This document shows positions 3,274 through 33,697 of a stretch of 64,000 bases of DNA, piece after piece. How positions within the stretch are numbered: the stretch's first letter is position 1; every line of letters starts with the position of its first letter. The position numbers and the translations under genes are program-made. The DNA comes from Thermoplasmatota archaeon (GTDB taxonomy: Archaea > Thermoplasmatota > Penumbrarchaeia > Penumbrarchaeales > Penumbrarchaeaceae): NCBI GenBank assembly GCA_048569615.1, contig JBLIRK010000001.1, positions 18,896 to 82,895 of the forward strand, read 5' to 3'. Under the pieces are notes generated by a model. That model had not been told where the DNA came from. It saw nothing but the letters and a program-made list of their open reading frames with translations, and did no database searches.

Positions 3274-5112
3274 ATGAGGATAGCCTCTCTCATCTACGAC
3301 AGGTGCCAGCCCAGGAAATGCGGGAAGGAATGCTACAACTTCTGCCCCAGGGTCAGGGCCGGAGATGAGATCTTCTCCTTCGATTCCAAGAACAAGCCGA
3401 TCATCGATGAGGATCTCTGCGTGGGATGCGGCATATGCGTCCACAAATGCCCATTCGATGCCATCAGGATAACGAACCTTCCCGAGGAGCTCGAGGAAGA
3501 TGTGATACACCAGTTCGGCCCCAACGGTTTCCGGCTGTTCAGGATCCCATACCCCCAGGAAGGGCGGGTGCTGGGGCTACTTGGCTCAAACGGGATCGGC
3601 AAGACAACGATACTCAACGTGCTCTCGGGAACTATGCTCCCGAACTTCGCGCTTGGCATAGAAGGGGACAAGGACGAAGGGCATGAACCGAAGGCATTCG
3701 GCTCCAAGAGGCTTGACAAGGACGAGGAGGAGAAGGCTCCGGAGAACTGGGAGGATGTGATGGGCAGGTTCTCTGGCACCGGACTGTACGAGCATTTCGA
3801 AAAGGTCGCCCACGATAAGCTCATTCCGGCATTGAAACCCCAATATGTGGATTCCATTCCGAAGGCGTTCAAGGGAAAGGTCCGGGAGCTCCTCGACAAC
3901 ATCAATCCGGAGAAGACAGAGGACCTCGCGGAAGCTTTGGAGCTCAACCATATAATGGACCGGACCCTGGACAAGCTCTCGGGGGGGGAACTCCAGCGCG
4001 TTGCCATCGCGGCCACCCTGTTGAAGGAGGGCAATTTCTACTTCTTCGACGAGCCGTCGTCCTATCTGGACATCAGGCAGAGACTGAAGATCTCCCAGAT
4101 GATCAGGGAGCTTGGGGATGTAAAGCAGGTAATGGTGGTGGAGCACGACCTTGCGATCCTTGACTTCCTAGCCGACAACATCTCCCTCATGTACGGGGAG
4201 CCCGGAGGTTTCGGTGTTGTGGCCAAGCCCATGACCGTCAAGCAGGCCATCAATGTGTTCCTCGACGGCTACATGAGGGTGGAGAACGTCAGGTTCAGGG
4301 ACAAGCCTGTGGAGTTCATGGACCATCCGCCGAGAACGGACTGGGTCGGTGGAGACCTGCTGACCTTCCCCGCACTGGAGAAGAGGTTCCCTTCCTTCAC
4401 CTTCAGGTCAGAGAGAGGGACCATCCATATGGGAGAATCGGTGGGGTGCGTCGGTCCTAACGCCACCGGGAAATCCACGTTCGTCAAAATGCTGGCGGGA
4501 GAGGAGAAACCGGACAAGGGGTACATTGAGACCCCTTTCAAGATCTCCTACAAACCGCAGTATATCAGGCATGATTTCGAAGGGTCCGTCAGGGATTATC
4601 TCATAATCGAGCTCATGGAGGCCTTCGGATCGGGTTTCTACAAGGCGGAGCTGGAAGGGCCGTTGGGCCTGAAGCATCTCTATGACAAGGAGATGGCAAA
4701 GCTATCGGGAGGAGAGCAGCAGAGGGTCGCTGTGGCCCGCGCACTCGCCAAGGAGGCCGATCTCTACCTGCTTGACGAACCTTCGGCATACCTGGATGCA
4801 AACCAGAGGATGGAAGTTGCGAAGATAATACGGAGGGTCATAGAGAAGAGGGGGCGATCAGGTCTCATCGTCGACCACGACGTGTATTTCATCGACCTTG
4901 TTTCGGATACATTGATGGTCTTCAGAGGGGAGCCCTCCGTTGAAGGTTACTCCGTGGGCCCGCTGGAGCTGAGGCAGGGAATGAACCTATTCCTCAAGGA
5001 CGTGGGGATCACATTCAGACGGGACATGGAGACGAAACGCCCGAGGATCAACAAACTGGGCTCCCGCCTGGACGAGGAACAGAGAAGGAAGGGCGAATAT
5101 TACTACGCCTGA
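3274..5112 (+). CDS. abcE1: ABCE1 / RNase L inhibitor-type ribosome recycling ATPase, with an N-terminal double 4Fe-4S domain and twin ABC ATPase cassettes
   Basis: CQPRKCGKECYNFCP and CVGCGICVHKCP ferredoxin-like clusters. Two Walker A motifs (GSNGIGKTT, GPNATGKST), two ABC signatures (LSGGELQRV, LSGGEQQRV) and two Walker B motifs (FFFDEPSSYLD, YLLDEPSAYLD). Start set at the ATG giving MRIASLIYDRCQP; the track start 3250 is TTG. Confidence 0.93.
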   Translation: MRIASLIYDRCQPRKCGKECYNFCPRVRAGDEIFSFDSKNKPIIDEDLCVGCGICVHKCPFDAIRITNLPEELEEDVIHQFGPNGFRLFRIPYPQEGRVLGLLGSNGIGKTTILNVLSGTMLPNFALGIEGDKDEGHEPKAFGSKRLDKDEEEKAPENWEDVMGRFSGTGLYEHFEKVAHDKLIPALKPQYVDSIPKAFKGKVRELLDNINPEKTEDLAEALELNHIMDRTLDKLSGGELQRVAIAATLLKEGNFYFFDEPSSYLDIRQRLKISQMIRELGDVKQVMVVEHDLAILDFLADNISLMYGEPGGFGVVAKPMTVKQAINVFLDGYMRVENVRFRDKPVEFMDHPPRTDWVGGDLLTFPALEKRFPSFTFRSERGTIHMGESVGCVGPNATGKSTFVKMLAGEEKPDKGYIETPFKISYKPQYIRHDFEGSVRDYLIIELMEAFGSGFYKAELEGPLGLKHLYDKEMAKLSGGEQQRVAVARALAKEADLYLLDEPSAYLDANQRMEVAKIIRRVIEKRGRSGLIVDHDVYFIDLVSDTLMVFRGEPSVEGYSVGPLELRQGMNLFLKDVGITFRRDMETKRPRINKLGSRLDEEQRRKGEYYYA

Positions 5113-8555: not shown

Positions 8556-9437
8556 ATGTCCCCAGAAGAGATCCCTCAGGAATTAATGAAGGAGCTCTCG
8601 GATTCTGAAAAGAGACTCAAAGGACTACTCGATAAAAGGGACCACTTCAACGAGGAAGCGAAGGTCATAAGGGAGATGAGGGACGACCTGCACAAGAAGA
8701 GGAAGGGCATCCTGGAACAGATACAGGACATCAGGGCCAAAAGGGGGCAGATCCTGGAGGAGCTCAAGAGCGCCAAGAGCAGGAGGGACGCCTACAACCA
8801 GAGGGTCAGGGATCTTCTCGGAATCAAGAGGCGGACGGATCAGGACATGAAGGAGAGGGACCCCTTCGAGGATATCAGCACCCTGGAGATCGAGCTGAGA
8901 AAACTGGAAGAGACCTATCAGACAAAGGCCCACTCCCTTGAAAAGGAGAGGGAGATAGTCAAGTCCATTGAAGAGAAGAGGAAGAAGCTGGAGAAACTCC
9001 AGGCCAAGGAGGTTACCTTCAAGGCGGAAAGGGTCCAGGCCCAGACCAAGGAGGATGAGATCACCGAGTACAGGAGGCTGGCGGATCAGGAGCACTCCAA
9101 TGTCAAGGAGCTATTCAACAAGCTCCAGGAGATCAACGAGAAGCTGGACGAATACTCGCCGACCCTCGACCACCTCAGGAAGGAGGGCGACAAAAGGCAC
9201 GAGGAGTTCCTCAAGACGAGAGAGCATGCCGATTCCTACCATCAGAAGGCCATGGATCTCAGAGAAAAGGTCCTCCAGCTGAGGCAGGAGAGGGACAAAC
9301 TGAAGAAGGATGCGAGGGAACTCATCGAGGATCAGAACAAGAAGGTAAGGGATGAACTGGAGGATGAGGGAAAGCTCGATGAGGCGGCCGACAAGGCCGT
9401 CGACCTGCTCCTGAAGAAGGGAAAGATCTCACTTTGA
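8556..9437 (+). CDS. Archaeal coiled-coil protein (COG1340-like), paralogue of 58577..59476
   Basis: Almost entirely charged heptad-like sequence (K/E/R/L/Q). The C-terminus ..LLLKKGKISL resembles ..KYKRGEKLSLEEL in the paralogue. Confidence 0.55.
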   Translation: MSPEEIPQELMKELSDSEKRLKGLLDKRDHFNEEAKVIREMRDDLHKKRKGILEQIQDIRAKRGQILEELKSAKSRRDAYNQRVRDLLGIKRRTDQDMKERDPFEDISTLEIELRKLEETYQTKAHSLEKEREIVKSIEEKRKKLEKLQAKEVTFKAERVQAQTKEDEITEYRRLADQEHSNVKELFNKLQEINEKLDEYSPTLDHLRKEGDKRHEEFLKTREHADSYHQKAMDLREKVLQLRQERDKLKKDARELIEDQNKKVRDELEDEGKLDEAADKAVDLLLKKGKISL

Positions 9438-14027: not shown

Positions 14028-17000
14028 CTAAAGGGGATTCTTGCAGTCGGGACAGAGGAACCATCCTTTCTTCACCCTGGAGCCGCAGGTCGGACATGTC
14101 GTTTCCTGCGGTTCCGGCTCGGGGGCGGACCTCTTAGGGGGAAGATGCTCCCTCCTTTCCTCCCTGGAAGCGGAAAGGGATGCCGCATGCCCTCCAGGAT
14201 GCAATCCATGCCTTTCTCCCCCGCCAAGATGGTGGGTCCGGTCCTCATCGTAATATTCCTCCTCCGCGGGCTTGGCCCTCCTCCTGAACACGAAGAAGAG
14301 TATTGCCGCGAGCAGTATGATCAAAGCAATGACCACCAGTACGACGTACAATCCAATGTTCCCTCCAGAGCCGTTATCGTCATCATCATCGCCAATCTTC
14401 GGCTCCTCGTATTTCTGAAGGGTGAATGTAACTTTCACCTCATCGGATCGTCCGTAGTCGTCCTGCAGCCAGACAGTGACGTTCTTCATGCCGTAGGAAT
14501 CGAAGGTGTAGTTGAGGTCCCACCCTGTCTCCTCCCCCTCATCATCCATCTGCCAGTGGCATGCATAGCGCTCCCCGAAGAAGTTCAGCTTGGGCTCCTG
14601 CCACAGGTGAACGCGCAGACCCTCGATCTTCATCGGGGTCACGGAATGGTCGTCGTAGAGCGAGAACTGCGGGTCCGGCCCGGGGACCGGGAAATCCTCG
14701 GGTTTCAGGATGATATCAACGGATGCAGAGGCGGTGTTCCCGCCCGAATCCATGACCTCTATGACGATCCTTATCGTCACCTCATCCGGGTATGTCTCCC
14801 TCCAGATCAATGGGTCCCGGATTTCGAACCTCAGCTCCCCCGTGTCGAGGTTGAAGGTCCAGTCCGTTCCCTCAACAAGGCCAGCAAAGGGAAGCTGATC
14901 GACAATAGGATCGGTCTCCCCGTCGATCTCGTCCTCCATATTGCAGCGGAATGATAACGTCTCGTCGGGGTCAATATCCCTCGCTATCGGCCTGATAACG
15001 ATGGTATCACCCTGGAAGAACTCCTCGTCGATCTCCGGGAATTCTATGGTGGGATCATCCTGGGCGTTCTCCAAGGATATTAAGACCTCAAGGCGGACCT
15101 TTCCGTCGAAACCCCCGTCATCGATCTCGAATACCATCTTCTCCCTGCCGTTCTTGACATCGTCGTTGGTAGGGGTCATCGTTGCATATCCGGTATTAAC
15201 ATCGACCTCCGGATCCTTATCCCAATTATCTCCGCCGTAATATGTGAATGCCAACGGCTGCTTCTCCGCCTCCGTTTCGGGGTCCTCGGCATCGATCTCG
15301 AGTTCGAACTGCTCATCCTCCACGGCGAAGACCTTGTCGATAAGGTCTAGCTTGAGCAGATATGGGTCCTTATTTTCGGGAACGTAGTTCTTGCCGTCTA
15401 TGATCACCTTCAGGACGATAGGGGGATCGTTCTCGGGCTCCACCACGATCTCCTCCGTTGTCTCCGCAAAGGAATGCGCATCAAATCCCCTGAGCCTTAT
15501 CTCCTCGTTCCCGTTCTGGTTCGGTTTTGGAGTTATAAGAGCGTTCCATCCCCCACCGTTGACCTTCTTGATATCTATATGGAGCAATTCGGTGTCTGAC
15601 GAGCTGTACCAATCGTTCCTGCTCTCATTCCATATCTGGAAACCCACGAAGGATAGCTCGTTGTCCCTGAACATGCCTCCTCCGGAGTGGTATTCCAGAG
15701 GGATGTAAACGGTAGGTTCATCCTCGCCGATGGGCTCGATCCCCGGATAGTTGTCATCGACATAGACCGGCTCGTCGTTCCAGACCTCGAAGGCGTCATT
15801 TACATCGATGGGTCCGGTCCATCTCATAGTGCGTATGGAATTTACTGGGATAGTATCCGAAGCGTTGAACCTTATGTCATGCGGAGAGTACTGCTCACCT
15901 ATGTCCTCGCCGAGGGCGGAATAGCTGTAAACCTTGCCGTCCGTGAAATCGTCATCCCCGGTGTCAGCCTCGTACTGGATCATGTCTATGACCTTCATGG
16001 AAAGGGTATCCGGATCGATCAGGAGCTCAAGGAGCTTCGGGGGGTCGTTGTCGGCGTCCGTATAGGTGACATTGATGGTGAACTCGGTCCCGTAATGGCC
16101 TCCAGTCTCGTCATCCGGCCAGTCGGAGCTAACTTCGATATCCGAAAGGGTGGGCGGATTGTTCGGGAGCTCCTCGATAACGTTGACATCCACTGTGTAC
16201 TCGGACCAGCAGGTCCAGAAGGGATAATAGGACTGTGTAGGCACCCCATCCTCCACCTGGTACGTGGCGGGTTCCGCCAACAGCCCGAGATAAGCTTCCC
16301 TTTCGTTCGATTCGGGATATATGCTCTTCAGGCGGTAGCCCAACGTCTGGTTCTCGTTGGCGACGAAGATGCCCCCCGCAATGAAGAAGCTTAGGATGTG
16401 GTGGTAGTAGTACCACAGGTCATCATCGTTGTTCCAGATGCCGTCATCCCCCGCGTCCCTCCATACGAAGAAAACATGGAGCCAGTCATCCCATCTCCTG
16501 CCGTTCAGCGAATCGCCGGAATAAAAACCCTGCCCGTCGGTCCTATTGATGCGAACCGTGATGTTCCACAGCTTGGTGGGATCCGAACCTCCGATCCTGT
16601 ACCAATCAACAGGCTGGTAAGTCGAATGTATGTATTTCTCCCCGAGAGGAATCACCGTTGTGGCAGTTTCCCTCGTATTGGAGGCGCTATCGGTATCCTG
16701 GGTCTGCCTCGTATCGATCTCCAGGGAGTACTTCATAGTGAATGCTCCCCTTGAAGGAGCCCCTTGCCTGGTGTAAGAATTGAAGGATATGGCGACATAG
16801 TACCAACCTATCTCGGTGAGTCCGTTGGCCCACCCGTCCGGGTCCTCATCGCCAACGGAGTTCTCGGGGGTGACGAAATTGAAGCTCCAGTTATCCCTGT
16901 AGGTCCATCCGTCCCCATCGTCGTGATCGTCGAAGGATGATTCCATCCCGCCCATGTTGACAACCTGCCCCCAGGGATCTATGAATATCACGGAAAGATA

Positions 17001-17612
17001 GATCAGATCCGCATGATCGACGGTCATATTCCCCCCTTCATCGGTCTCCAGCTCGTAGAGCCCTGTGTACAGATCATTGCCGTCGGTGAGGTCGTTTATG
17101 GTCAGGGATACATTGTGAACCCCTCCAGGAGCATTGGCGGTCTCGTCGATGTCGTTCAGGGAGAACTTGAACCAGTCCCTGATATCGCTTGTACCGGCCG
17201 GATCGTAGTTCAGCGTTCCGTCGATGACCTCGACGGCGTTTGTCATCTTGGAGCCGTTTGGGAAATCGTGAATGTCCCGCTCCTTCTCCTCGTCGGAGGC
17301 CCTTGTCCTTTCATCTTCCATTTCCAGGACCGAGTAGCATCCGGACGGAGCCTCCCTCATGGAGATGCCCTTCACTCCGGTGCTCCTTACACCTTCGGAG
17401 AACAGTGCTCCCCTCTCTTGTTTCACGATCTCGGAAAGAACAACGGACTCCCCGGGTGAGAGGGCAAACAGACCGGGATTCGTACCGTCGGGAATTGACG
17501 AATCATCCGATCTTTCAACTTCAATATCCGGCCCTCTTCCTGTAGCAACAGCCGTTAAGCCCGGCACAATAAGAAGCAAAGCAGCCAAGAAGAACTTCAT
17601 TTTAGATTTCAT
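14028..17612 (-). CDS. Very large (1194 aa) secreted surface protein with a C-terminal TM anchor and an ~90-aa cytoplasmic tail ending in a zinc ribbon
   Basis: Signal peptide MKSKMKFFLAALLLIVPGLTAVATG. Acidic ectodomain rich in D/N/T/W. TM LYVVLVVIALIILLAAILFFVF, then RRRAKP... and CPTCGSRVKKGWFLCPDCKNPL. Confidence 0.6.
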   Translation of the reverse strand: MKSKMKFFLAALLLIVPGLTAVATGRGPDIEVERSDDSSIPDGTNPGLFALSPGESVVLSEIVKQERGALFSEGVRSTGVKGISMREAPSGCYSVLEMEDERTRASDEEKERDIHDFPNGSKMTNAVEVIDGTLNYDPAGTSDIRDWFKFSLNDIDETANAPGGVHNVSLTINDLTDGNDLYTGLYELETDEGGNMTVDHADLIYLSVIFIDPWGQVVNMGGMESSFDDHDDGDGWTYRDNWSFNFVTPENSVGDEDPDGWANGLTEIGWYYVAISFNSYTRQGAPSRGAFTMKYSLEIDTRQTQDTDSASNTRETATTVIPLGEKYIHSTYQPVDWYRIGGSDPTKLWNITVRINRTDGQGFYSGDSLNGRRWDDWLHVFFVWRDAGDDGIWNNDDDLWYYYHHILSFFIAGGIFVANENQTLGYRLKSIYPESNEREAYLGLLAEPATYQVEDGVPTQSYYPFWTCWSEYTVDVNVIEELPNNPPTLSDIEVSSDWPDDETGGHYGTEFTINVTYTDADNDPPKLLELLIDPDTLSMKVIDMIQYEADTGDDDFTDGKVYSYSALGEDIGEQYSPHDIRFNASDTIPVNSIRTMRWTGPIDVNDAFEVWNDEPVYVDDNYPGIEPIGEDEPTVYIPLEYHSGGGMFRDNELSFVGFQIWNESRNDWYSSSDTELLHIDIKKVNGGGWNALITPKPNQNGNEEIRLRGFDAHSFAETTEEIVVEPENDPPIVLKVIIDGKNYVPENKDPYLLKLDLIDKVFAVEDEQFELEIDAEDPETEAEKQPLAFTYYGGDNWDKDPEVDVNTGYATMTPTNDDVKNGREKMVFEIDDGGFDGKVRLEVLISLENAQDDPTIEFPEIDEEFFQGDTIVIRPIARDIDPDETLSFRCNMEDEIDGETDPIVDQLPFAGLVEGTDWTFNLDTGELRFEIRDPLIWRETYPDEVTIRIVIEVMDSGGNTASASVDIILKPEDFPVPGPDPQFSLYDDHSVTPMKIEGLRVHLWQEPKLNFFGERYACHWQMDDEGEETGWDLNYTFDSYGMKNVTVWLQDDYGRSDEVKVTFTLQKYEEPKIGDDDDDNGSGGNIGLYVVLVVIALIILLAAILFFVFRRRAKPAEEEYYDEDRTHHLGGGERHGLHPGGHAASLSASREERREHLPPKRSAPEPEPQETTCPTCGSRVKKGWFLCPDCKNPL

Positions 17613-17733
17613 CCCTTTCCCTCCTCATGTCTGCAATTATATTGATTCTTACAGTTTATAATGGTTTTTTAAAAATGGTCTTCAAAGATGTCATGACTTG
17701 TGACCTTATTTTGCCTATATTTTTTAGTTTTAG

Positions 17734-17741
17734 TTTATATA
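17734..17741 (+). promoter_or_regulatory. Candidate archaeal TATA box (TTTATATA) about 100 nt upstream of the RRM gene, implying an ~75-nt 5' leader
   Basis: Exact TTTATATA at 17734-17741 in an AT-rich intergenic region. Nearest downstream start is ATG 17843. Confidence 0.35.
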
Positions 17742-17842
17742 CTAGGAGGGATTTCGCTCAGATACCGGGTCGATGCCGAGGACCCGTCGTGGGAAACCCA
17801 TGTCCAAGGTCTGGGTTCCACTTTAGGTAGGAGATGTGTTAA

Positions 17843-18121
17843 ATGAACATATATGTGGGGAACCTCCCCTTCAGGACAACCGAGGAAGAGCTTGGGGAGC
17901 TCTTTGCCAAATTTGGAGCCGTGGAATCATCCAAGATCGTTTACGACCGCGAGACGGGAAGGTCCCGTGGATTCGGGTTCGTCGAGATGAAGAACGACGA
18001 CGAGGCCAAGGAGGCCATCGAGAATCTCGACCAGCATGATTTCCAGGGACGAGCCTTAAAGGTCAATGAAGCAAAACCCAAGCCCCCAAGGAGAGAGGGC
18101 GGGTCCGAAAGAGCCTGGTAG
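17843..18121 (+). CDS. RRM-domain RNA-binding protein (bacterial Rbp/glycine-rich RNA-binding protein type)
   Basis: RNP-2 NIYVGNL and RNP-1 RGFGFVEM in canonical spacing. Short basic C-tail. Confidence 0.85.
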   Translation: MNIYVGNLPFRTTEEELGELFAKFGAVESSKIVYDRETGRSRGFGFVEMKNDDEAKEAIENLDQHDFQGRALKVNEAKPKPPRREGGSERAW

Positions 18122-18135
18122 GTCCGAAAGGTGTC

Positions 18136-19419
18136 CTATTCCGATGGGGTTTCCCCGCTATCAGTACGGTCCTTGAAATCGACCTCCTTTTCGATTACGA
18201 AGGATCCTATGTAGTCGCACCTCTTGCAGTGATAGACATATCCAGTTATGAAACCAGACTCGTAATAGAGTTCGGTACCACCGCATTCGGGGCATTGATG
18301 CACTATCATCCTGCCGGAGCCTCCGGGCATATTTTCCAGCTGTGCGCCGATCTCCTCAGCCTCTTCCCTGCCGATGAGGTCGCGTCCCCTGGTGAGGCCG
18401 GGTTTATGTCCCTTCTCGATCTCCTCGGTTTCGGCCCTCCTCATACTTGACACTGTGATCTTGGATAGCTCGAAGTAGAGCTTTCCCAGATCCTCCTCCG
18501 GCCCGAACAGTACTATATCCCTGTTCTCGTCATTGATGATCATGGCCGGCTCATCCCGGCCGATCTTGAAATAGACCACGGCCGCAGCAAATAATGTGAT
18601 CATGGCGACGACGGCTCCAATGAAGAGGTCGAGCTGTGTGTTGGTATGGTAGTATTCAGGACCCCACTCGATCTTGATCCTGTGCTCCCCGGCGGCAATT
18701 CCGTCGGGCAGCCTTATAATGATCCTGCACCCCTTGTCGTTCACGCTTTCTCCGCTCTGCATGTTCCTGGCATCGCCCAGCTCCATTCTGTCCAGCAGGA
18801 TATCATAGGATGTCTTTCCGGTGTTAAAATCCTTGACGGTTAATGAAAAGCTCTCCCTTTCCGCCACCTTTCTCTGGTCATCCAGCACCACCATCTCGAC
18901 GTACCTGACAGTATGTCTGCTCCCGGAATCGAAGGTGATCCTGAGATGGCTGATGCCCTTGATCTTCAATTCATTCGCATCTCCCATCCACATTATGTTC
19001 AGGTCCAGACTCCGGGGGATGCTCTCCTCGATGGAGATAACGTCCCAGTAATCCTCGGCGTTGTATTCAACGCTGTTTTCCAGGTTAATATAATTCGAGC
19101 TTCCGGAGAATAAATATATCGGCGATAGGGGAGCTCCGGTTTCGTTTACGAAGGGTCTGAGATTATTCTGAGAGAGCTCCAGATAGGGGTCCGATTCGTC
19201 CTCGCTTCCGAAGAGGTATTGAACCGCAGCGAACAGGACCACCCCGGCCATGATGATGACAAACAGTATTATTATGACCTTGAGTGTCGGCATCCTCCTC
19301 CTCTTTCCCAGAGTGGCCCCCCTAACCCTGACCTCCTCACCGTCCAGAAGGAATCTTTTTCCCTTCAGCCGGACCTTCACTTCCCTGTCCTCCCTGATAA
19401 GGTCCATCTCGATCTTCAT
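18136..19419 (-). CDS. Bitopic or polytopic membrane protein with an extracellular middle domain and a C-terminal cytoplasmic zinc ribbon
   Basis: TMs VIIILFVIIMAGVVLFAAVQYLF and LFIGAVVAMITLFAAAVVYF. C-terminus HQCPECGGTELYYESGFITGYVYHCKRCDY. Start overlaps the upstream LarC-like gene by 4 nt. Confidence 0.5.
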   Translation of the reverse strand: MKIEMDLIREDREVKVRLKGKRFLLDGEEVRVRGATLGKRRRMPTLKVIIILFVIIMAGVVLFAAVQYLFGSEDESDPYLELSQNNLRPFVNETGAPLSPIYLFSGSSNYINLENSVEYNAEDYWDVISIEESIPRSLDLNIMWMGDANELKIKGISHLRITFDSGSRHTVRYVEMVVLDDQRKVAERESFSLTVKDFNTGKTSYDILLDRMELGDARNMQSGESVNDKGCRIIIRLPDGIAAGEHRIKIEWGPEYYHTNTQLDLFIGAVVAMITLFAAAVVYFKIGRDEPAMIINDENRDIVLFGPEEDLGKLYFELSKITVSSMRRAETEEIEKGHKPGLTRGRDLIGREEAEEIGAQLENMPGGSGRMIVHQCPECGGTELYYESGFITGYVYHCKRCDYIGSFVIEKEVDFKDRTDSGETPSE

Positions 19420-23582: not shown

Positions 23583-24077
23583 ATGGAGTGGTCAAAAGCC
23601 CATCCGGACATAAAGATCAGAAAGGCCGTTCCCAAGGATGCTGCGAAGCTCGCGGACTTCAGGGTCGGTTTCCTCAACGAATTCTTCGAGCACCCTGCCG
23701 ATGAGGAATCTGAGAGGCTCAGGGAGAACATCGCTCTCTATTACAGGGAGCACCTCGACAAAGGGGACTTCATCGCGCTTATCTGCGAGAAGGATAAAAA
23801 GCTGATAGCGTCCATCGGCATGATAATCCGTACTATGCCCCCGGTGTACGGGAACCTGATGAACGGAAAGCTCGGTTATCTGCTGAACATCCACACCCTA
23901 CCCGCATACCATGGTATGGGCATAACTGGGGAGCTCACGAGAATAATGGTCCAGGAAGCTAGGGAGCTGGATCTGGGATACATACATCTCCACACCGGAC
24001 TCGACGCGGTAAGGATCTACCAGAAGATGGGGTTTAAGGAGGTCACCGCAACGGAGCTCCGAATGGACCTGAAATGA
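23583..24077 (+). CDS. GNAT-family N-acetyltransferase
   Basis: Acetyl-CoA-binding motif A region ..LLNIHTLPAYHGMGITGELTRIM.. (Q/RxxGxG/A-like). About 165 aa. Confidence 0.7.
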   Translation: MEWSKAHPDIKIRKAVPKDAAKLADFRVGFLNEFFEHPADEESERLRENIALYYREHLDKGDFIALICEKDKKLIASIGMIIRTMPPVYGNLMNGKLGYLLNIHTLPAYHGMGITGELTRIMVQEARELDLGYIHLHTGLDAVRIYQKMGFKEVTATELRMDLK

Positions 24078-24179
24078 AGATCGTCAATTTCTCATCTCCT
24101 TCGTTGGCTCGCATTTTTATCATATTTTGAAATGTTTCCAATAATAAAGTTAATAACCCTAATACTTCTCACATTGCAC

Positions 24180-26330
24180 TTAAAAGTACCAATAGCTGTA
24201 GTCATCTTCTTCTACGGAGTTGGGTAGGTCGGTCTTACTGATCTCCATGAGAGAAGACAGCGATGTTGCTTTGACCATATTATAGGAAACCGTGTAGAGT
24301 GCATCATCGATGTAGAAGGATCTGTAGATCGTAGTAGGTCCGTATTCATCCCACCATCGACGACCTGTGATCCTGTCATCATCAGAATGGGTAATTTTAC
24401 CTCTGAGTTGAAATCCATTCTCCGGTGTCACATCGAAAACATACGCCCCTTCCCATGCAAATTCCCCGTAAGTGTTAGGGCTTACCTGGTATTTCGATAC
24501 CTCCAGTTCATACAGCTCTACGGGAATGACAAGCAGATTCCTGTGAAGACTGAACAAGAAAGCATGGGGATCATTCTGTGCAAGAGAGTAGGTTCCCCTG
24601 TCTCCTATGATATACTTTGATATCTCCTTGGGATTATTCACGTCCGTTACATCGAAAAGAGAGAGCTTGACACCCTGGAACCATGAAAATGTCCCTTCCT
24701 CGGCCAGGACCGTATCAAGACCAAGTCCAATCACATGATCATCATCATACGGATGGAGGTAATCGGAATAGCCAGGTATCTTCAATTCTCCGAGGATTAT
24801 CGGTAAGTAAGGATTGGAGAGATCGATAACAAAGAACGGATCAACTTTATCAAAGGTGACCAGATAAGCTCTTTCACCCATGAACCTGGCAGAGTATATC
24901 CTCTCTCCCGGGGCAATGTCCTTTATGCTTCCAACTATTTCGAGATCCATGTTAAGGACATAGATATGATTCCTTGCATCTCCCTCATCATACCTTGAAA
25001 CGTGACCTGTCGTTGTGGCTATTCGAAAATGATCATCATACTCTCCCATCGAGAACCTGTTCAATATATACCCCGGAACCTCGCCGCTGGCTCTGAAATT
25101 GATATAACCGCGATAGATCGATATCCTGTGTATTGCAGTCCTTTCCACATTGACATTCGTCCTATCATTGAATTCTTCCTCCTTTCCCTGCCATTGGTCA
25201 TAGAACGAGTCCATTTCCTGACGGGTAAGGTTATCCAAATAATCCCCCATAATATTGTCAATCCTTCCGATCCTTTCCGACCTGGAAAGGTCCATGTCCT
25301 TCGTTTCCTCTATAGGTATCTTTACTTCATCCGGAAGTATCGGAACCATGACCTCATCGATCTTCATCTCGATCTCCTCCACCCAGCTGATCATTTTGGT
25401 ATGGGTGATGTAAATATTGTCGAGGGAAACGTAGACCTCGGAAGACTTTCCGATCAGCATCATCCGGGTGTTCGGCGGTTCAGTGATCGAATTGATGTTA
25501 ATGGAGGTTATGCCGGTGAAGATGTAGCTTGTATCATATATGTCCGCATAGGAGATCTCATCGGCAGGAGCGGGCAGATCTGATTCATTATCTATGAGAC
25601 CGGTGTACCTCCTGGAAATTACGTAGTAATGTTCGCCTATGACCCTGGAAGTCACGTAGCTCCCTTCTATGACATCCTCCCTCAATAAAGTGGGGGTGTT
25701 CCTATCTTCGATCCGATATACATTTATGAGTATCTCGGGTTTTTCATAATGATCGTAAAAATACCAATCGTAGTAGTAATAATCGTTTCCCCTTGTCCCC
25801 ATAACGATCAGTTTATCTCCGCTCAGATAGATTTCATTTATACTGAAATCATCCATTTCAATTGTTGATACAATGCTCATTTCCTCGGCGGGATAGACGT
25901 CAAGGATGTAAACGCTCTTCCTGTCATTGGATACTATGAAAGCGTGATCACCATCGTTCTTTACAACATCCCCTTCATCAACTCCGCTCTCCTGGTTGTT
26001 TGTCGTTGAATAATCCCGAGCATCTCCCATGGATGGATCTGCTATGCAATAACAGCAATCGGCATAAGAGTCTATATAATCACGATAATAACTGGAACTG
26101 TAAAGGTTCTTATAAGTCCAATAACTGCCTTCCAGATCATCTTTCTCTTTGATGAATGATTGGAAATCATTGAAAGATCCAAAGGTTTGGAAGTCGGTCT
26201 CTTCATCACGTGGAATGATCATTTGATCCGGACTATACCTCGGGTCCTGGTCCTGAATCGATATTCCGCCTATTAGGATCGAACTGACGACCATGACCAA
26301 GACGCATGTGGAGACGATCTCTTCCTTCAT
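24180..26330 (-). CDS. Secreted beta-propeller repeat protein (716 aa)
   Basis: Signal or anchor sequence STCVLVMVVSSILIGGISI. Repeated ~45-aa units rich in Y/D/G/V through the body. No C-terminal TM. Confidence 0.5.
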   Translation of the reverse strand: MKEEIVSTCVLVMVVSSILIGGISIQDQDPRYSPDQMIIPRDEETDFQTFGSFNDFQSFIKEKDDLEGSYWTYKNLYSSSYYRDYIDSYADCCYCIADPSMGDARDYSTTNNQESGVDEGDVVKNDGDHAFIVSNDRKSVYILDVYPAEEMSIVSTIEMDDFSINEIYLSGDKLIVMGTRGNDYYYYDWYFYDHYEKPEILINVYRIEDRNTPTLLREDVIEGSYVTSRVIGEHYYVISRRYTGLIDNESDLPAPADEISYADIYDTSYIFTGITSININSITEPPNTRMMLIGKSSEVYVSLDNIYITHTKMISWVEEIEMKIDEVMVPILPDEVKIPIEETKDMDLSRSERIGRIDNIMGDYLDNLTRQEMDSFYDQWQGKEEEFNDRTNVNVERTAIHRISIYRGYINFRASGEVPGYILNRFSMGEYDDHFRIATTTGHVSRYDEGDARNHIYVLNMDLEIVGSIKDIAPGERIYSARFMGERAYLVTFDKVDPFFVIDLSNPYLPIILGELKIPGYSDYLHPYDDDHVIGLGLDTVLAEEGTFSWFQGVKLSLFDVTDVNNPKEISKYIIGDRGTYSLAQNDPHAFLFSLHRNLLVIPVELYELEVSKYQVSPNTYGEFAWEGAYVFDVTPENGFQLRGKITHSDDDRITGRRWWDEYGPTTIYRSFYIDDALYTVSYNMVKATSLSSLMEISKTDLPNSVEEDDYSYWYF

Positions 26331-26459
26331 TTCACTCCTCTCCCGGATACCAATTGGTTTCCCGGTTATAAATGAAGTGTGGAACAGATTTTACCGGTCT
26401 ATTTTAAAAAGACCTGTCCAATGCAAATGAGATGTTTCAGTTTAAGCGCAGATCCTATT

Positions 26460-26957
26460 TTAGCCGAATATGACCTGGAGCTTGAAACCGTCGGTTAAAA
26501 AATGTGTGATGATGATAACCCCTATCGCCATCATCGCTATCTTAACCGTAGGGTGGAAATTCTGCTTGACAAATGGGGCCATGAAGAACAGAAAGCTGAG
26601 CATCAATACGCCCATCGTGAAGAGTATGTCGGCGGTGTTCTGAAAGATATTTATTATGTTGTTATACCTCTCCAATGCATCCATATATTCATCATGGTCC
26701 CAATAATCGTTGGAACTTGGGGGGCTTGGATAATTTGATGCACCCATTACTATCACTGCAACCAGGATTAAAATGAACGGGAAGAAGAACAATCTCTTAT
26801 AGTTCCGCGTCAAGAAATCCCGATCTTGGAAATTTTCATTGGGGGGTGTTGATGGCGGATTCTCCCACCTGACACTCCTGCCTTCGATTGGATTAACCTT
26901 CCTTTTTCTAACTACTTTTCCATTTTCCACTTCATTCTCCTCATACATGGGATCCAC
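26460..26957 (-). CDS. Membrane protein (3 TM), hypothetical
   Basis: Three hydrophobic helices. No motif. Confidence 0.4.
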   Translation of the reverse strand: MDPMYEENEVENGKVVRKRKVNPIEGRSVRWENPPSTPPNENFQDRDFLTRNYKRLFFFPFILILVAVIVMGASNYPSPPSSNDYWDHDEYMDALERYNNIINIFQNTADILFTMGVLMLSFLFFMAPFVKQNFHPTVKIAMMAIGVIIITHFLTDGFKLQVIFG

Positions 26958-27171
26958 CTCTATCCTTGGCCGTTAAATAGATGGCTTTTCAATACAATTA
27001 TTATTTGTGGAATGATTTTTGTCGACTAATATAATATACCAAACCTATCCAATCCGAAATGGAACGAAAAAAACTCCTTACAAATTTCTTTCCAGTGGGA
27101 ACTATCTTTAATATCGCATTCAAATAATGATAATCTAGAGTATTATTCAGATAGAAATATGTATCAAGTTC

Positions 27172-28119
27172 GTGGATGTTTTCTCGGGGAAGTTGAAAAC
27201 AATGTCGAGAGCTGTTTCATTTCTTCTCATCGGTGTTTTAATGATTTCTATTTTAAACATCGAAAACAACGTTATAATTGGAGACGCCGACGCCGCTCCG
27301 GCGGAGGACCCCTCCTTCGTTATCGTGATCGAGGACATTTACGATCCCGAATTGAGATCCGACCCCTACATCCTGGAAGGAACGATGGTGGGAGCAGTGC
27401 ATATGGATTATTCCTGGGATGATGAGAGTATCCAATACCTGATCGTTGAGCTGTCGGTCTTTTGCGAAGGTTTCTCCTGCTGGATCGAACCGGATGAGAT
27501 ATTTTTCAGCAGAGCACAGAAGTTACAACGCTTCACGGTGATCATCGAGGCTCCCCTGAGCACTTCATCGAAGCTAACCAACGAGCTGAAGTTGGAGGGG
27601 AGCTGGCATTCGGATCCCGGAGAGCGTACCGGAACGATAGCTCCCGAGACCGTTCCCTTCAATGTGAAGGAGCACTACCACCACGAATTGGAGCCTGTTG
27701 ATACTTACGCCGAAGCGGATATTGGCGACACCGTGACTTTTCGATGCCTTATGATAAACAGGGGAAACGGGGATGACGTGGTGAGGGTGTATATAGTCAA
27801 TGATTATGTTTTCGAGGACCTGGGATGGACCATTGAGATAATCAACGGGACAGACCTCATCCCGGAGGGTGAGCGCAGGGAGCTGAAAGTAAAAATAACA
27901 ACCAGCAAAGCAACTCCCTCTGGTGTACATACAATGAGGCTCAGGATCGTCTCCAATGAGGCGGAGTCCAAGGGCGAAATAAGCTATGTGGTCGACCAGA
28001 ACCTCACTGTCAAGATAGGTGAAAATAAAGAATACTTAGCCTTCGGAACCCTGCCCATTATTTTTAGTCTCCTTTTCCTTCTAGGATCGTCCTCATTCAT
28101 TATTAGGAGGAGAAGATAG
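27172..28119 (+). CDS. Secreted protein with a C-terminal TM anchor ending RRRR
   Basis: Signal peptide VSFLLIGVLMISILNI. TM LAFGTLPIIFSLLFLLGSSSFII, then RRRR. Confidence 0.45.
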   Translation: MDVFSGKLKTMSRAVSFLLIGVLMISILNIENNVIIGDADAAPAEDPSFVIVIEDIYDPELRSDPYILEGTMVGAVHMDYSWDDESIQYLIVELSVFCEGFSCWIEPDEIFFSRAQKLQRFTVIIEAPLSTSSKLTNELKLEGSWHSDPGERTGTIAPETVPFNVKEHYHHELEPVDTYAEADIGDTVTFRCLMINRGNGDDVVRVYIVNDYVFEDLGWTIEIINGTDLIPEGERRELKVKITTSKATPSGVHTMRLRIVSNEAESKGEISYVVDQNLTVKIGENKEYLAFGTLPIIFSLLFLLGSSSFIIRRRR

Positions 28120-28280
28120 ATATTAATTGTATTCCTGATACGATTCCAAAGATGCCAACTGAACCCTATCATATGGAGTGACCAATACACATACCATTGA
28201 AAAACGAAAATGAACATCTCTTCCTGGATAGAACCTTTCGGTTATCACCAAAAAGCAGGACATGCAGTATTGGAATCTTC

Positions 28281-28643
28281 TCATTTCTTTCGGGGGGTCA
28301 TCCTACCGATATTGACCATTTCCTCCGCATAGGACTGCCTTCCGTTCTTCTTAATCATCTCCAATGCGGAGCCCCTGTCGGAGCCGAATATCAATGAAAA
28401 CGCCTTCGCCATCAAATTGTTCAACTGCTTGCACTCATACGGATCCGAGAATTCCCTGCAGTCCGCACATGTATGGTAACCGTGGTCGATGCAGCAGGAC
28501 CTGATCTTGCACCATGATGCTTTCTCATTCCCTGCGCATCCCTGGCATCTACCTTTCTTGAACTTCCCGCATTCACCGCAGTACAGTCCGCAGTAGGCCA
28601 CAAGGTCCTTATTCGGTTTTACCGGCACCATGTCGATCGCCAT
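28281..28643 (-). CDS. Cys-rich DUF3795-like protein (putative metal/FeS-binding)
   Basis: YCGLYCGECGKFKKGRCQGCAGN...WCKIRSCCIDHGYHTCADC. Confidence 0.55.
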   Translation of the reverse strand: MAIDMVPVKPNKDLVAYCGLYCGECGKFKKGRCQGCAGNEKASWCKIRSCCIDHGYHTCADCREFSDPYECKQLNNLMAKAFSLIFGSDRGSALEMIKKNGRQSYAEEMVNIGRMTPRKK

Positions 28644-28709
28644 TGATAGTTCCCAAGGTGTTATTTAAACAAGAATTCGGAGGGGAGCACTCCGAATGTG
28701 AAATACAAT

Positions 28710-29363
28710 TCACAATTTCCTTCTGAGGAGATAGGCCCAGTTGTGGAACATCTCTCCATCCTCTGGGTCCACCCCTCCGACGAAAAGAAGCGAATCCATT
28801 AATTCGAAACCGGATATTTCGGCAACTTTTTCGACGTAGCCCCTACCGTGCAGTATAACCTTTCTCCCCCATTCGGTATCCATGTTCTCGATCCCGTCCC
28901 CAACGGGACCTCCGTCTTTCCCGCACATGGTGGTGAAGACGAATGTTCCTCCGGTTTTGATCACTCTTGCTGCTTCCCTGAAGATGAAGGAAAGGTCCTC
29001 GAAGAAATGGAGGACGCCGTGGGCCAAGCCATGATGGAAGAAACCATCATCATACGGCAATGGGTCCTTTGAGATGTCGAGAACCTTCAGCTCTTTGGCA
29101 AAATCCTTCCTTTCGCATTGAAACAGCATTTCCCTTGATATGTCGACTCCATATACTTCAAGACCGTATCTGCCATACCTCTGCGAGGACAGGCCTGTTC
29201 CTATGCCTATGTCCAGGAGCCGCTCCCCCGGTGAGAGTCTGTCGAACTGCAGTCCGAAGAGAACATTGCCTCCAAACGACCTGTATTCCGAGGTCATATC
29301 GTCGTAGGATTCGGCGAAGCTTCCTTTCAACTCCTCTTCGGGCATACCCATGTCGATGGACAA
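28710..29363 (-). CDS. Class I SAM-dependent methyltransferase
   Basis: Motif I LLDIGIGTGLSS. Post I acidic residue region ..VYGVDISREML.. Motif II/III region. Confidence 0.75.
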   Translation of the reverse strand: MSIDMGMPEEELKGSFAESYDDMTSEYRSFGGNVLFGLQFDRLSPGERLLDIGIGTGLSSQRYGRYGLEVYGVDISREMLFQCERKDFAKELKVLDISKDPLPYDDGFFHHGLAHGVLHFFEDLSFIFREAARVIKTGGTFVFTTMCGKDGGPVGDGIENMDTEWGRKVILHGRGYVEKVAEISGFELMDSLLFVGGVDPEDGEMFHNWAYLLRRKL

Positions 29364-29371
29364 GGACCACC

Positions 29372-29851
29372 TTAAAATTGACTGATGATCTTAACGACCG
29401 CTTCAAACGGGAGCTGGCTCTTCATCGATATCTCATCCGTATCGTAACCCTCCTCATGGAGCCTCTTGACAACATTCTCGATTGGCTCTCCAACTTCAAT
29501 TACGTAGCCGTCCGGGTCGAGGAACCTCATATTTCTCTGCCCCCATGCCTCTTCCTTTATGGTATGGATGAATTCCACGCCATTCTCGAGGAGCCTGTCC
29601 TGGACCTCCTCGATATCGTCGGATTCGAAATAGAGCTCCACTGATTTGATCTCCCCATCATCACCAAATCTCCCTGGCTCACCGAAGACGATCTCGGAGG
29701 CCCTTTCCCTGTCCCAGAGTGATATCGAATCCCTGAAGGCGATGTTCGCTCCGAAGTCGTACTGGACCTCGAGCCCTATCAGCTCCTCGTAGAACTTCCT
29801 GGAAATCGAAATATCGCTAACGGTTATGACCGGCATCTCGAATTTCATCAT
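29372..29851 (-). CDS. VOC/glyoxalase-bleomycin-resistance family protein
   Basis: Paired beta-alpha-beta-beta-beta modules (..VITVSDISISRKFYEELIGLEV..). Confidence 0.6.
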   Translation of the reverse strand: MMKFEMPVITVSDISISRKFYEELIGLEVQYDFGANIAFRDSISLWDRERASEIVFGEPGRFGDDGEIKSVELYFESDDIEEVQDRLLENGVEFIHTIKEEAWGQRNMRFLDPDGYVIEVGEPIENVVKRLHEEGYDTDEISMKSQLPFEAVVKIISQF

Positions 29852-29864
29852 ACATGCTCACCAT

Positions 29865-30359
29865 TCATCCGATCGGTGCGTGTATCTCGGTGAGCAGCTC
29901 CTCCGGGGGAACCTCCCGGGGGCTGTTCCAGTACAGTTCCCTCAGATCTCCCTTGAGCTCCTTTCCGTTCTCCGCCATCCACGCGAACAATCTGCTGTAT
30001 GCCGGACCCATGGAATCATAGGGGCCTTTATGAACCATCTTCGCGACCGTGCCCCCCGGGAGCTCGTAGCATTTTATCTCATCCGTCTCCGGAGCGATGT
30101 CTCCGGCGATGGGAAAAGCAGCTTCCAGGTCCGCGTTGTTCTCCGCCATTGCCTTCATAGCCTCCTCCTCGGACCTCTCGTGGCTCACGAAGATGGCGGG
30201 TCCCTTGAGCTGGATGTTGTTCGCCATCGCGTGATGTACAAGCGACATGAAAAGGTTGGGTATCTCGTGATATCCTCCCGTCTTCCTGATCCCGATGACC
30301 TTTATCGATTCCACTTCAATGATCTCTATCTCTCCCATTTGCTCACCACTATCCATCAA
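29865..30359 (-). CDS. GyrI-like small-molecule-binding domain protein
   Basis: ..IEIIEVESIKVIGIRKTG....ELPGGTVAKMVHKGPYDSMGPAYSRLFAWMAENG.., typical of the GyrI/SbmC/AraC-effector fold. Confidence 0.6.
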   Translation of the reverse strand: MMDSGEQMGEIEIIEVESIKVIGIRKTGGYHEIPNLFMSLVHHAMANNIQLKGPAIFVSHERSEEEAMKAMAENNADLEAAFPIAGDIAPETDEIKCYELPGGTVAKMVHKGPYDSMGPAYSRLFAWMAENGKELKGDLRELYWNSPREVPPEELLTEIHAPIG

Positions 30360-30433
30360 TGCAATTCATTATAAAAACAAGACCTGTGGGGAGGGAGATC
30401 GAAGTAAAACGAAAGTAAGTATCATTATAAAAT

Positions 30434-30880
30434 TCAATACGCTGAACTATATGATTTCGCTATGATATCTTTTTCCCAGACGACCTTGTTCTCGTCAATA
30501 TTGATTATTATTACCGAATATGTCTCGCCCTGGGTTAGGGCTGGAAGTCCGGTTGCGATTGTGAGAGTATCTCCGGCGTTCGAGGTTGTAGTGTCAGTCA
30601 GAGTCGTTGTATCAATCTTGATATCATAGTCTCCCCAGTTGATCTGTCCATATACGATCTCTATTTCGATCATGTCAGCCGTATTTGGTCCGGATACATC
30701 CGCATAGAGATTAACCTTAATGCCTAAGGTTTCAACCTCATCTTCCTCATGATGATAAGGTTCAGAAATTAGAAAAGCAACAAAGCATCCAATGAAAAAG
30801 AATGTAACGAATGAGAAAACCATCGGACATGATATATTCCCTACTTTCTCTTCATTATCGATATATTTCATACTAGACAT
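30434..30880 (-). CDS. Paralogue A of a small N-terminally membrane-anchored protein family associated with the rSAM/SPASM gene
   Basis: MSSMKY...TM FSFVTFFFIGCFVAFLI; core ..KVNLYADVSGPNTADMIEIEIVYGQINWGDYDIKIDTTTLTDTT..; C-terminus ..NKVVWEKDIIAKSYSSAY. About 75% nt identity to paralogue B over the 3' half. The track start 30988 was rejected. Confidence 0.6.
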   Translation of the reverse strand: MSSMKYIDNEEKVGNISCPMVFSFVTFFFIGCFVAFLISEPYHHEEDEVETLGIKVNLYADVSGPNTADMIEIEIVYGQINWGDYDIKIDTTTLTDTTTSNAGDTLTIATGLPALTQGETYSVIIINIDENKVVWEKDIIAKSYSSAY

Positions 30881-30930
30881 GATATTTACCGAATTAATAT
30901 GAATAAATATATACCTTCCCCTTTTATAAA

Positions 30931-31092
30931 TCAAGGATTTGATAATTCTGGTCTGTACACTGGCGTTCCATACATAGATTGGCCCCAAAGGAATACATAT
31001 GTTATTGAAAATCCGATAAGGAATCCCAACACCGCGCTAGAGATGATGAGTATCCAATTACCGACACTCATAGAAGTGAAATAACTGAACAT
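30931..31092 (-). CDS. Unannotated 53-aa small membrane peptide, paralogue of 31622..31768, with a conserved C-terminal YGTP[IV]YRP motif
   Basis: Hand translation: MFSYFTSMSVGNWILIISSAVLGFLIGFSITYVFLWGQSMYGTPVYRPELSNP. ATG start, TGA stop. Aligns with the other peptide over NWILIISSAVLGFLIGF/QWIILISTALVSFSIGF and MYGTPVYRP/HYGTPIYRP. Confidence 0.45.
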   Translation of the reverse strand: MFSYFTSMSVGNWILIISSAVLGFLIGFSITYVFLWGQSMYGTPVYRPELSNP

Positions 31093-31157
31093 TAATATAT
31101 CTTTTACTATTATAGTTAATATTCAACGATAATGGAAAAAAATTTTAACTTTCTCTG

Positions 31158-31595: not shown

Positions 31596-31621
31596 ATATC
31601 AATCCCCAATTTTTCATTTTA

Positions 31622-31768
31622 TTATTTTATCGCTGGACGATATATCGGTGTACCATAGTGTTCCTCTGGCATATTGCTCGATAAGGCTATGAATGCGGCA
31701 CATGCGAATCCAATGGAAAAGCTAACCAACGCGGTTGATATCAATATTATCCACTGTGCTAACTTCAT
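31622..31768 (-). CDS. Unannotated 48-aa small membrane peptide immediately downstream of the rSAM/SPASM gene (candidate precursor peptide)
   Basis: Hand translation: MKLAQWIILISTALVSFSIGFACAAFIALSSNMPEEHYGTPIYRPAIK. ATG start, TAA stop. It lies 69 nt after the rSAM stop and 26 nt before paralogue B. Confidence 0.45.
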   Translation of the reverse strand: MKLAQWIILISTALVSFSIGFACAAFIALSSNMPEEHYGTPIYRPAIK

Positions 31769-31837
31769 GTATATACATACAATAATGGAAATTTATATCT
31801 ATCTAAGAGCTTTTACGAATGAATATTTTTAATATTA

Positions 31838-33190: not shown

Positions 33191-33205
33191 CTATCTTTTT
33201 ATTTT

Positions 33206-33682: not shown

Positions 33683-33697
33683 ATAGCTTTCCGAAAT

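Follow-up and report, generated by a model that had tools for sequence, protein, structure and literature searches.

Stand-alone proteins with an RNA recognition motif (RRM) are a hallmark of eukaryotes and are scattered in bacteria. In Bacteroides, the genes rbpA, rbpB and rbpC have 5' untranslated regions (UTRs) of 122-155 nucleotides (nt), are subject to feedback control and play a role in cold adaptation (PMC13370968). Cyanobacterial Rbps have roles in cold adaptation, too, and one of them, Rbp3, associates both with ribosomes and with photosynthesis mRNAs at their 3' ends (PMC9333190, PMC12232666). Archaea without Csp proteins have small and abundant stand-alone TRAM proteins, which resemble cold-shock proteins and bind RNA non-specifically (PMC5572242, PMC6705878). 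A 2023 analysis of spliceosome origins, based on the presence of the domain in bacteria, treats the RRM as bacterial in origin and the eukaryotic RRM as a bacterial contribution (PMC9887622). A literature search for stand-alone archaeal RRM proteins found no paper in the collection covered; an apparent match was merely a strain name containing 'RRm'. Here, we describe a gene for such a protein in a 64,000-nt stretch, the window, of contig JBLIRK010000001.1 from a Thermoplasmatota archaeon (GCA_048569615.1). The explanation that fits the data best as a whole, and that we consider likely, is that a bacterial Rbp gene was acquired by an archaeal ancestor, became adapted to its host and now encodes a possible post-transcriptional regulator with a conserved leader.

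A bacterial-type RRM protein in an archaeal genome

The gene is the only RRM gene in the 64-kb window:

17843..18121, + strand: gene for a 92-amino acid (aa) single-RRM protein of the Rbp family; RRM at residues 2-80, disordered basic tail at residues 81-92, last residue Trp

The open reading frame (ORF) starts with ATG. Its product, already labelled 'RNA recognition motif domain-containing protein' in GenBank, matches the complete Pfam model RRM_1 (PF00076; profile 1-70 of 70) with 88.5 bits and E = 2.7e-25 (gathering cut-off 20.7). The NCBIfam model NF058537 'Rbp_regulator' is covered completely as well (1-79 of 79), with 121.3 bits versus a curated equivalog_domain cut-off of 100. According to the Pfam search, the 92 aa comprise one RRM with a short tail and no other domain. 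DUF8400 (PF28442), a weak precomputed match on many homologues, was not found by this search even at E <= 10. RNP-2 (IYVGNL, residues 3-8) and RNP-1 (RGFGFVEM, residues 42-49) agree with the consensus motifs [ILV]-[FY]-[ILV]-x-N-L on β1 and [RK]-G-[FY]-[GA]-[FY]-[ILV]-x-[FY] on β3, and the aromatic residues Y4, F44 and F46 are conserved. The last position of RNP-1 is M, a residue that most bacterial homologues share; the homologue alignments show no variation at M49. An AlphaFold2 model built from a 36-sequence alignment (mean predicted local distance difference test score 83) has the canonical β1α1β2β3α2β4 order, with strands at residues 2-6, 27-34, 41-49 and 73-76, helices at 14-22 and 52-62, and a tail that is disordered from residue 84. 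Foldseek returned 870 PDB matches at E <= 0.001. All 50 matches listed are RRM domains with template modelling (TM) scores of 0.73-0.84 normalised to the query. The top match, with 57% identity and a target-normalised TM of 0.92, is 7jly, an RNA-binding protein from a bacterium. By sequence, 7jly is followed in the PDB by the prokaryotic 2ki2 and 7qzp and by many eukaryotic RRMs. In molecular terms, the protein is a member of a known family, since all testable defining features of RRM_1 and NF058537 are present. Its sole departure from NF058537 is the archaeal host, which concerns taxonomic range and not molecular identity. An earlier note made from the sequence alone had described the 92-aa protein with its canonical RNP motifs exactly as found here, and Pfam, NCBIfam and fold agree with it. 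The start coordinate 17700 given there is merely the GTG of a spurious 48-aa ORF.

The C-termini of most Rbp homologues, archaeal and bacterial, end in an aromatic residue after R, N or D (…RAW, …RNW, …RNFY, …GRW, …DRW, …DRY). This end is independent of the length of the Gly-rich tail and looks like a conserved feature of the Rbp family.

The host is archaeal. On the same contig as the RRM gene, the window encodes an unsplit RpoB (48540-51953), a split RpoA'/A'' (RpoA' 45868-48579, RpoA'' 43672-45867), ABCE1/RLI with its Fe-S domain (3250-5112), a DUF7121 protein (8556-9437) and FtsZ. The RRM protein and its neighbour protein are 100% identical to entries of a 'Thermoplasmatota archaeon' metagenome-assembled genome (MAG) on a 181-kb contig. 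In terms of RpoB, the genome falls into a tight group with about 17 members (88-95% identity), followed by relatives at 77% and 73% and by named Thermoplasmata/Methanomassiliicoccales entries at 65-69%.

The relatives of the RRM gene are overwhelmingly bacterial. All 8,000 candidates scored in the homologue search had E <= 0.001, hence at least 8,000 homologues exist. The named ones among the best 120 are bacteria of many phyla plus two Thermoplasmatota entries, and these named archaeal matches all come from one narrow clade. Among the GTDB species representatives, the 80 top-ranking loci listed are without exception bacterial (49-69% identity). In a neighbour-joining (NJ) tree of the 82-residue RRM domain (195 sequences, 200 bootstraps), the window sequence and P0002 form group A (94% bootstrap), and P0020, L085, L086, P0022, P0011 and P0015 form group B (95%). 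Identity between A and B is 62-74%, not above that to bacterial sequences. P0005, an unnamed sequence that clusters with the archaeal ones in this tree, has a bacterial context with FtsY, RadC, Fpg and RfaE-like genes. Because the homologues are overwhelmingly bacterial, A and B are no closer to each other than to bacteria and P0005 has bacterial neighbours, the gene is of bacterial type and embedded in bacterial diversity. These comparisons support a horizontal transfer from bacteria, which is the best interpretation of its origin.

A Mariprofundaceae affinity, hinted at by a similar C-terminal tail, had no support in the NJ tree. Another homologue, P0016 (L083 6001-6279), is 61% identical, has 92 aa and starts with TTG after AGGAGA. 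Its neighbours encode FIST, Yip1, MFS, transketolase and NTPase_1 (THEP1-like) proteins. If this contig is archaeal, it would point to a second archaeal lineage with an Rbp.

The gene occupies a defined slot in the host chromosome:

17698..18135, unstranded: RRM unit of about 440 bp (promoter, leader and ORF), which occurs as a whole or not at all; bounded by the stop codon of the neighbour gene and by the palindrome in the promoter of the surface-protein gene
18136..19419, - strand: convergent neighbour gene, 427 aa, no Pfam domain; lineage marker that defines the syntenic slot, without apparent functional link to the RRM gene

Only 18 homologues of the neighbour gene were found and every named one is from Thermoplasmatota, which makes it a marker of the lineage. 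The slot is filled in the window and in the loci L081, L082, L084, L085, L086 and L093. These loci belong to a narrow clade and stem from no fewer than five assemblies that are independent of one another. In L081, L085, L086 and L093, slot and orientation are equal and the gene order RRM / ~420 aa / Ni_insertion / ~270 aa / DHOD-B Fe-S / DHO_dh is common to all. The other flank varies and carries either the large surface-protein gene or the MFS/PKD/AP-endonuclease/DUF7121 genes that lie at 8.5-14 kb in the window. The closest relative, P0002 (L084, 85% identical), has the same flanks on a 1-kb contig. The gene is patchily distributed, with a cleanly empty slot in four related genomes. In L088, L090 and L091/92 the slot is empty: the surface-protein gene follows 125-147 nt past the neighbour gene, and the RRM gene is absent. 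In L087, a methyltransferase gene with a different junction takes its place. No RRM gene was found within ±4-5 kb of the marker gene in L087, L088, L090 or L091/92, and searches of the empty sites for RRM remnants with blastn-short and tblastn yielded only chance matches.

The RRM gene bears no compositional trace of transfer in GC content (0.548 vs a host mean of 0.545), GC content at third codon positions (0.688 vs 0.700; 28 host genes) or codon usage (16th percentile of random stretches of 92 host codons). Between the two sublineages that carry the gene, the five flanking proteins share only about 54% identity, and the orthologues (62-69% identity) have diverged in step with the flanking genes. 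Host-like composition and a shared slot in two diverged sublineages support an old rather than a recent acquisition. A host tree was computed from 1,505 ungapped columns of these flanking proteins. It joins the window to L090, which lacks the RRM gene (98% bootstrap); the group B hosts form a clade (100%) and L088 pairs with L091 (100%). Since A and B share slot, orientation, Shine-Dalgarno (SD) region and near-identical first codons, one insertion followed by at least one loss is the simplest history.

Some points weigh against this account. The tree of the 82-residue domain resolves neither the donor nor a common origin of A and B, so that a single acquisition rests on synteny. The rarity of RRM proteins in archaea is derived from ranked match lists and not from a census. 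Furthermore, the genomes with an empty slot may carry the gene elsewhere.

The earlier note had regarded the protein as bacterial-type in an archaeal setting, and this is borne out by the dominance of bacterial homologues and by RpoA', RpoA'', RpoB and ABCE1 on one contig. Its proposal of a horizontal acquisition agrees with the bacterial best matches and the cleanly empty sites; a recent date is not supported, as the composition is host-like and the slot syntenic. The taxonomy of best matches, which it had recommended to examine, is bacterial except for one Thermoplasmatota clade and points to no particular donor. Similarly, the recommended comparison of GC content and codon usage, made with 28 host genes, speaks for an old acquisition and provides no foreign signature. 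Orthologues that are ubiquitous and vertically inherited, which the note had named as contrary evidence, were not encountered: related genomes have an empty slot.

We propose the following course of events. An ancestor of a narrow Thermoplasmatota lineage would have acquired a bacterial Rbp-family gene. The point of insertion lies in front of the promoter of a large surface-protein gene, with a membrane-protein gene specific to the lineage on the other side. Vertical descent would then have kept the gene in two or more sublineages, whereas others lost it or never had it fixed. Adaptation to the host would have affected composition and supplied a TATA promoter of archaeal type, a Shine-Dalgarno site and a leader of about 78 nt that begins with a conserved GC hairpin. 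By analogy with bacterial Rbps, and judging from its intact RNP motifs, the protein may bind single-stranded RNA on its β-sheet via Y4, F44 and F46. It might have a broad function in post-transcriptional regulation or as an RNA chaperone, plausibly in the adaptation to stress or cold.

Promoter, leader and start region

The following elements were assigned to the RRM unit upstream of and within the beginning of the ORF:

17734..17741, + strand: TTTATATA, candidate TATA box of archaeal type for the RRM gene; TATA-like octamer at the equivalent place in 7/7 leaders
17765..17842, + strand: predicted 5' UTR (leader) of about 78 nt, placed by archaeal spacing between TATA box and transcription start site (TSS)
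17766..17786, + strand: hairpin H1, CGGGUC-N9-GACCCG, with 6-bp stem and 9-nt loop; predicted in every orthologue, at the predicted 5' end of the transcript
17789..17801, + strand: second small hairpin GUGGG-AAA-CCCAU in the minimum free energy (MFE) fold from ViennaRNA, in place of the larger variable P2 domain of group B
17814..17819, + strand: GGUUCC, complementary to GGAACC in codons 6-8; present in 6/7 leaders, GGUUCG in L084
17829..17837, + strand: Shine-Dalgarno region AGGAGAUGU, invariant in all orthologues; 4-5 nt before AUG (5 in the window)
17857..17869, + strand: GGGGAACCUCCCC, codons 5-9 with frozen synonymous sites; possible local 5-bp hairpin GGGGA/UCCCC, predicted in 7/7 folds

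Within the roughly 100 nt upstream of the gene, the earlier note had pointed to a sequence box, and TTTATATA is indeed located there, 102-109 nt upstream of the ATG. All seven orthologous leaders have the same succession of a TATA-like octamer, 21-23 nt ending in TA (23 nt in the window) and a GC hairpin. Archaeal TSSs lie at a characteristic distance from the TATA box, and this spacing was used to predict the leader start. Leaders of about 78 nt in the window, about 84 nt in L084 and about 105-108 nt in group B are obtained in this way. As the usual spacing places the TSS directly in front of it, H1 would be located at the very 5' end of the mRNA. The GC-rich string quoted in the note corresponds to 17761-17793.

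The stem of H1 is CGGGUC/GACCCG in group A vs GGGACC/GGUCCC in group B; both stems are equally long, enclose loops of the same size and lie equally far from the TATA box. In a five-row alignment, 96.7% of the cells are paired and three of the six pairs are changed on both sides, in a compensatory manner; slid registers reach at most 67%. This comparative evidence is supportive of H1, but not proof. For group B, RNAalifold predicts a P2 domain with a long-range helix (CGUGACC/GGUCAUG) and an apical CAUCC/GGAUG hairpin; the second hairpin of group A may be homologous to it. The same program pairs GGUUCC of group B with the coding sequence, thereby enclosing SD and AUG. All these pairs are invariant, so that they are uninformative with regard to covariation.

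The SD-like AGGAG is found at 17829-17833. From the SD region through the first ten codons, groups A and B are near-identical at the nucleotide level. Codons 5-9 (GTG GGG AAC CTC CCC) are invariant in 8/8 archaeal genes. Twenty codons with invariant amino acid and at least four-fold degeneracy exist, only five of which are invariant as codons, and four of these five are codons 5, 6, 8 and 9. Among the others of this class, 15/16 vary across the eight archaeal genes. By enumeration, four of five invariant codons fall within five consecutive codons in only 16 of 15,504 possible placements. The local hairpin in GGGGAACCUCCCC pairs four of the five frozen third positions. In addition, GGGGAACCUCCCC is complementary to GGUUCC at 17814-17819, and its CUCC to the GGAG of the SD. 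The exact 15-mer of codons 5-9 is present in none of the 80 bacterial homologue loci.

A regulatory role of the leader is plausible. The 5'-terminal hairpin would most likely guard the mRNA from 5'-end-dependent decay, and the frozen nucleotides at the SD and in codons 5-9 may tune translation initiation. Several observations weigh against a more elaborate reading of these sequences. The MFE of the whole window leader, -31.3 kcal/mol, equals that of dinucleotide shuffles (-31.1 kcal/mol, z = -0.07), and the covariation term of RNAalifold for group B is unfavourable (+2.92). The covariation of H1 amounts to one A-versus-B split on a hand-registered alignment. The predictions leave the AUG largely accessible in most sequences, and the gain in SD accessibility upon warming is what any RNA would be expected to show. 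Furthermore, the frozen 15-mer occurs in nine JGI metagenome contigs (L095-L103) with unrelated RRM genes and leaders, and is thus not unique to the clade. The RRM genes of these contigs start with the 27-mer ATGAAYATHTAYGTGGGGAACCTCCCC, and their upstream regions are GC-rich and unlike the archaeal leaders. A metagenome scan with this 27-mer returned just these nine contigs, all of which encode different RRM proteins, and no new members of the clade.

Against this background, it seems rather doubtful that the leader is a dedicated cis-regulatory RNA, either an autoregulatory RRM site or an RNA thermometer, instead of a stabilising hairpin followed by a spacer. Its architecture is kept in seven leaders, the nucleotides from the SD to codon 9 are frozen, and the GGUUCC/GGAACC and GGAG/CUCC complementarities could occlude the ribosome-binding site; bacterial rbp genes are, moreover, feedback-regulated via long 5' UTRs (PMC13370968). 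However, neither a thermodynamic excess nor net covariation in group B was found. The helix that would occlude the ribosome-binding site is invariant and weakened in L084 by GGUUCG, the predicted accessibility of the AUG is high, and only about six independent sequences enter the comparison. A new archaeal module of TATA box, 5' hairpin, variable P2 and ribosome-binding site/early coding region with frozen synonymous sites, by which the protein controls its own translation or translation responds to temperature, is unlikely. If it were true, it would be the first described RRM-based post-transcriptional circuit in an archaeon and a new class of archaeal 5' UTR element.

The window contains no Rfam 15 family at gathering score besides one tRNA, and between 17550 and 18250 the only match at E <= 10 is a 15-bit chance snoRNA match upstream of the leader. 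The archaeal leaders and the upstream regions of the bacterial homologues have no sequence in common; the expression signals therefore originated within the archaeal lineage instead of being brought along with the gene. The structured GC-rich leader of the earlier note can thus be retained for H1, which is comparatively conserved, and not for the leader as a whole, which folds like its shuffles. The suggested resemblance to bacterial rbp 5' UTRs fails for want of shared sequence, Rfam match and thermodynamic excess; such a likeness is functional speculation and not homology.

Competing histories of the locus

Instead of one insertion, groups A and B could go back to two acquisitions, or the gene could have spread among related archaea by homologous recombination of the flanks. 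A and B do not come out as sisters, their leaders and TATA boxes differ, and the RRM-less L090 interrupts the RRM-positive lineages. Yet slot, orientation, the SD region AGGAGAUGU and the first ten codons are the same or near-identical in both groups, and so is the geometry from TATA box to hairpin. Two insertions at one site from different donors would not have these properties in common, and we regard this alternative to a single gain with vertical descent as very unlikely, although some recombinational spread within the lineage may have occurred.

Equally improbable is the view that the common ancestor of Thermoplasmatota, or of archaea, already had the RRM gene, that it was widely lost and that its match list looks bacterial due to sampling bias. 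The host tree requires at least one loss anyway, as the window groups with the RRM-less L090. The phylogeny of such a short domain does not settle the branching order, and the purely bacterial GTDB result refers to the best 80 loci listed. On the other hand, the named archaeal matches among the best 120 all belong to one narrow clade, the empty sites contain no remnants, and the archaeal sequences lie within bacterial diversity, as far from each other as from bacteria. In addition, the RRM has been treated as a bacterial and eukaryotic domain (PMC9887622).

A recent transfer, or an error of assembly or binning that placed a bacterial fragment in an archaeal MAG, could account for the bacterial nearest database neighbours outside the clade and for a small self-contained unit present or absent as a block, but is effectively refuted by RpoB/RpoA and ABCE1 on the same contig, by a neighbourhood that recurs in independent NCBI, ENA and Logan assemblies and thereby excludes mis-assembly and mis-binning, by host-like composition and codon usage, by a TATA-type promoter with a leader unrelated to bacterial loci, and by orthologues of 62-69% identity that diverged in step with their flanks.

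Genomic neighbourhood and comparison with known systems

The RRM gene and its convergent neighbour have stop codons 14 nt apart in the window (18121-18136) and 42-105 nt apart in group B. With a distance of 14 nt, the RRM transcript must end within the coding region of the neighbour, which implies overlapping antisense 3' ends. On the other side, a 230-nt intergenic region (17613-17842) separates the RRM gene from a divergent gene (14028-17612, - strand) for a 1194-aa surface protein, whose promoter shares this region:

17654..17697, - strand: promoter of the surface-protein gene with TATA-like GTTTATAA (17654-17661) and palindrome GTCATGAC (17690-17697); kept in RRM-less genomes and outside the RRM unit

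The GTCATGAC palindrome and the GTTTATAA box were considered as regulatory elements of the RRM gene and rejected, as both are present upstream of the surface-protein gene in RRM-less genomes. The perfect palindrome centred on GTCATGAC reads ATATGTCATGACATAT in L088 and L091 and CATGTCATGACATG in L090. It is located about 28 nt upstream of the TATA box of the surface-protein gene (~1,200 aa) in every relative, with or without RRM gene (L088 6318-6368), and is likely a transcription-factor operator for this gene. The 1194-aa surface protein and the 427-aa neighbour protein have hydrophobic segments and terminal CxxC...CxxC zinc-ribbon-like motifs (CPTCGS...CPDCKN and CPECGG...CKRCDY, respectively). 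Neither matches a Pfam or NCBIfam family.

Further away, a low-GC island at about 24000-34000 of the window (GC 0.37-0.47 vs 0.52-0.57 elsewhere) contains genes for a methyltransferase, a radical SAM/SPASM enzyme and a beta-propeller protein of PF09826, along with several ORFs without domain match. In L087, which lacks the RRM gene at the slot, a block of methyltransferase and radical SAM/SPASM genes directly adjoins the neighbour gene. The tRNA gene at 52350-52425 (- strand) matches the Rfam tRNA model at its positions 7-64 with 35.9 bits and was missed by ARAGORN; it may be atypical or contain an intron. The RpoA'' ORF (43672-45867, - strand; 731 aa) has an Rpb1 domain-5 match at residues 348-673 only. 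Its N-terminal ~350 residues, directly after the RpoA' stop codon, have no Pfam match and may be a lineage-specific insertion or extension.

New here are the old acquisition, the one syntenic slot with its filled/empty polymorphism in a narrow clade, and the lineage-specific architecture of the leader. Archaea can evidently recruit the RRM module and equip it with native expression signals. Filled and empty loci in close relatives represent a natural experiment on the contribution of the protein. The practical value is modest: the protein was already annotated as RRM, the lineage is uncultured, and no new biochemical mechanism is suggested. The locus is of interest mainly for archaeal RNA biology or the origin of eukaryotic RNA-binding proteins and otherwise ordinary.

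Among known systems, the archaeal TRAM chaperones are comparable in function only, as the RRM protein might fill a similar role; the folds are unrelated (TRAM/OB-like vs βαββαβ). Eukaryotic CIRBP and the plant GR-RBPs share fold and RNP motifs, with PDB matches to 1x5s and 5tbx (CIRBP) and 4c7q (NtGR-RBP1) at E = 1e-16 to 1e-20. Unlike these, the archaeal protein has a 12-residue tail and no glycine-rich low-complexity tail, and the eukaryotic matches are more distant than the bacterial ones. The cyanobacterial Rbps (Synechocystis Rbp1/2/3, Anabaena RbpA-F) are likewise small stand-alone RRM proteins, and their Rbp2-like members also lack a long Gly-rich tail. They are further characterised by cold induction, mRNA targets and regulatory 5' UTR elements; the archaeal leader gave no Rfam or sequence match. 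The bacterial Rbps of NF058537, such as Bacteroides RbpA/B/C and 7jly, correspond in one RRM_1 of about 80 aa, RNP-1 and RNP-2, and a short basic tail. As in the Bacteroides rbp genes, a long leader precedes the ORF (~78 nt predicted here, 122-155 nt there). The differences are the archaeal host, the TATA-type promoter and a leader that has no sequence in common with the upstream regions of bacterial homologues.

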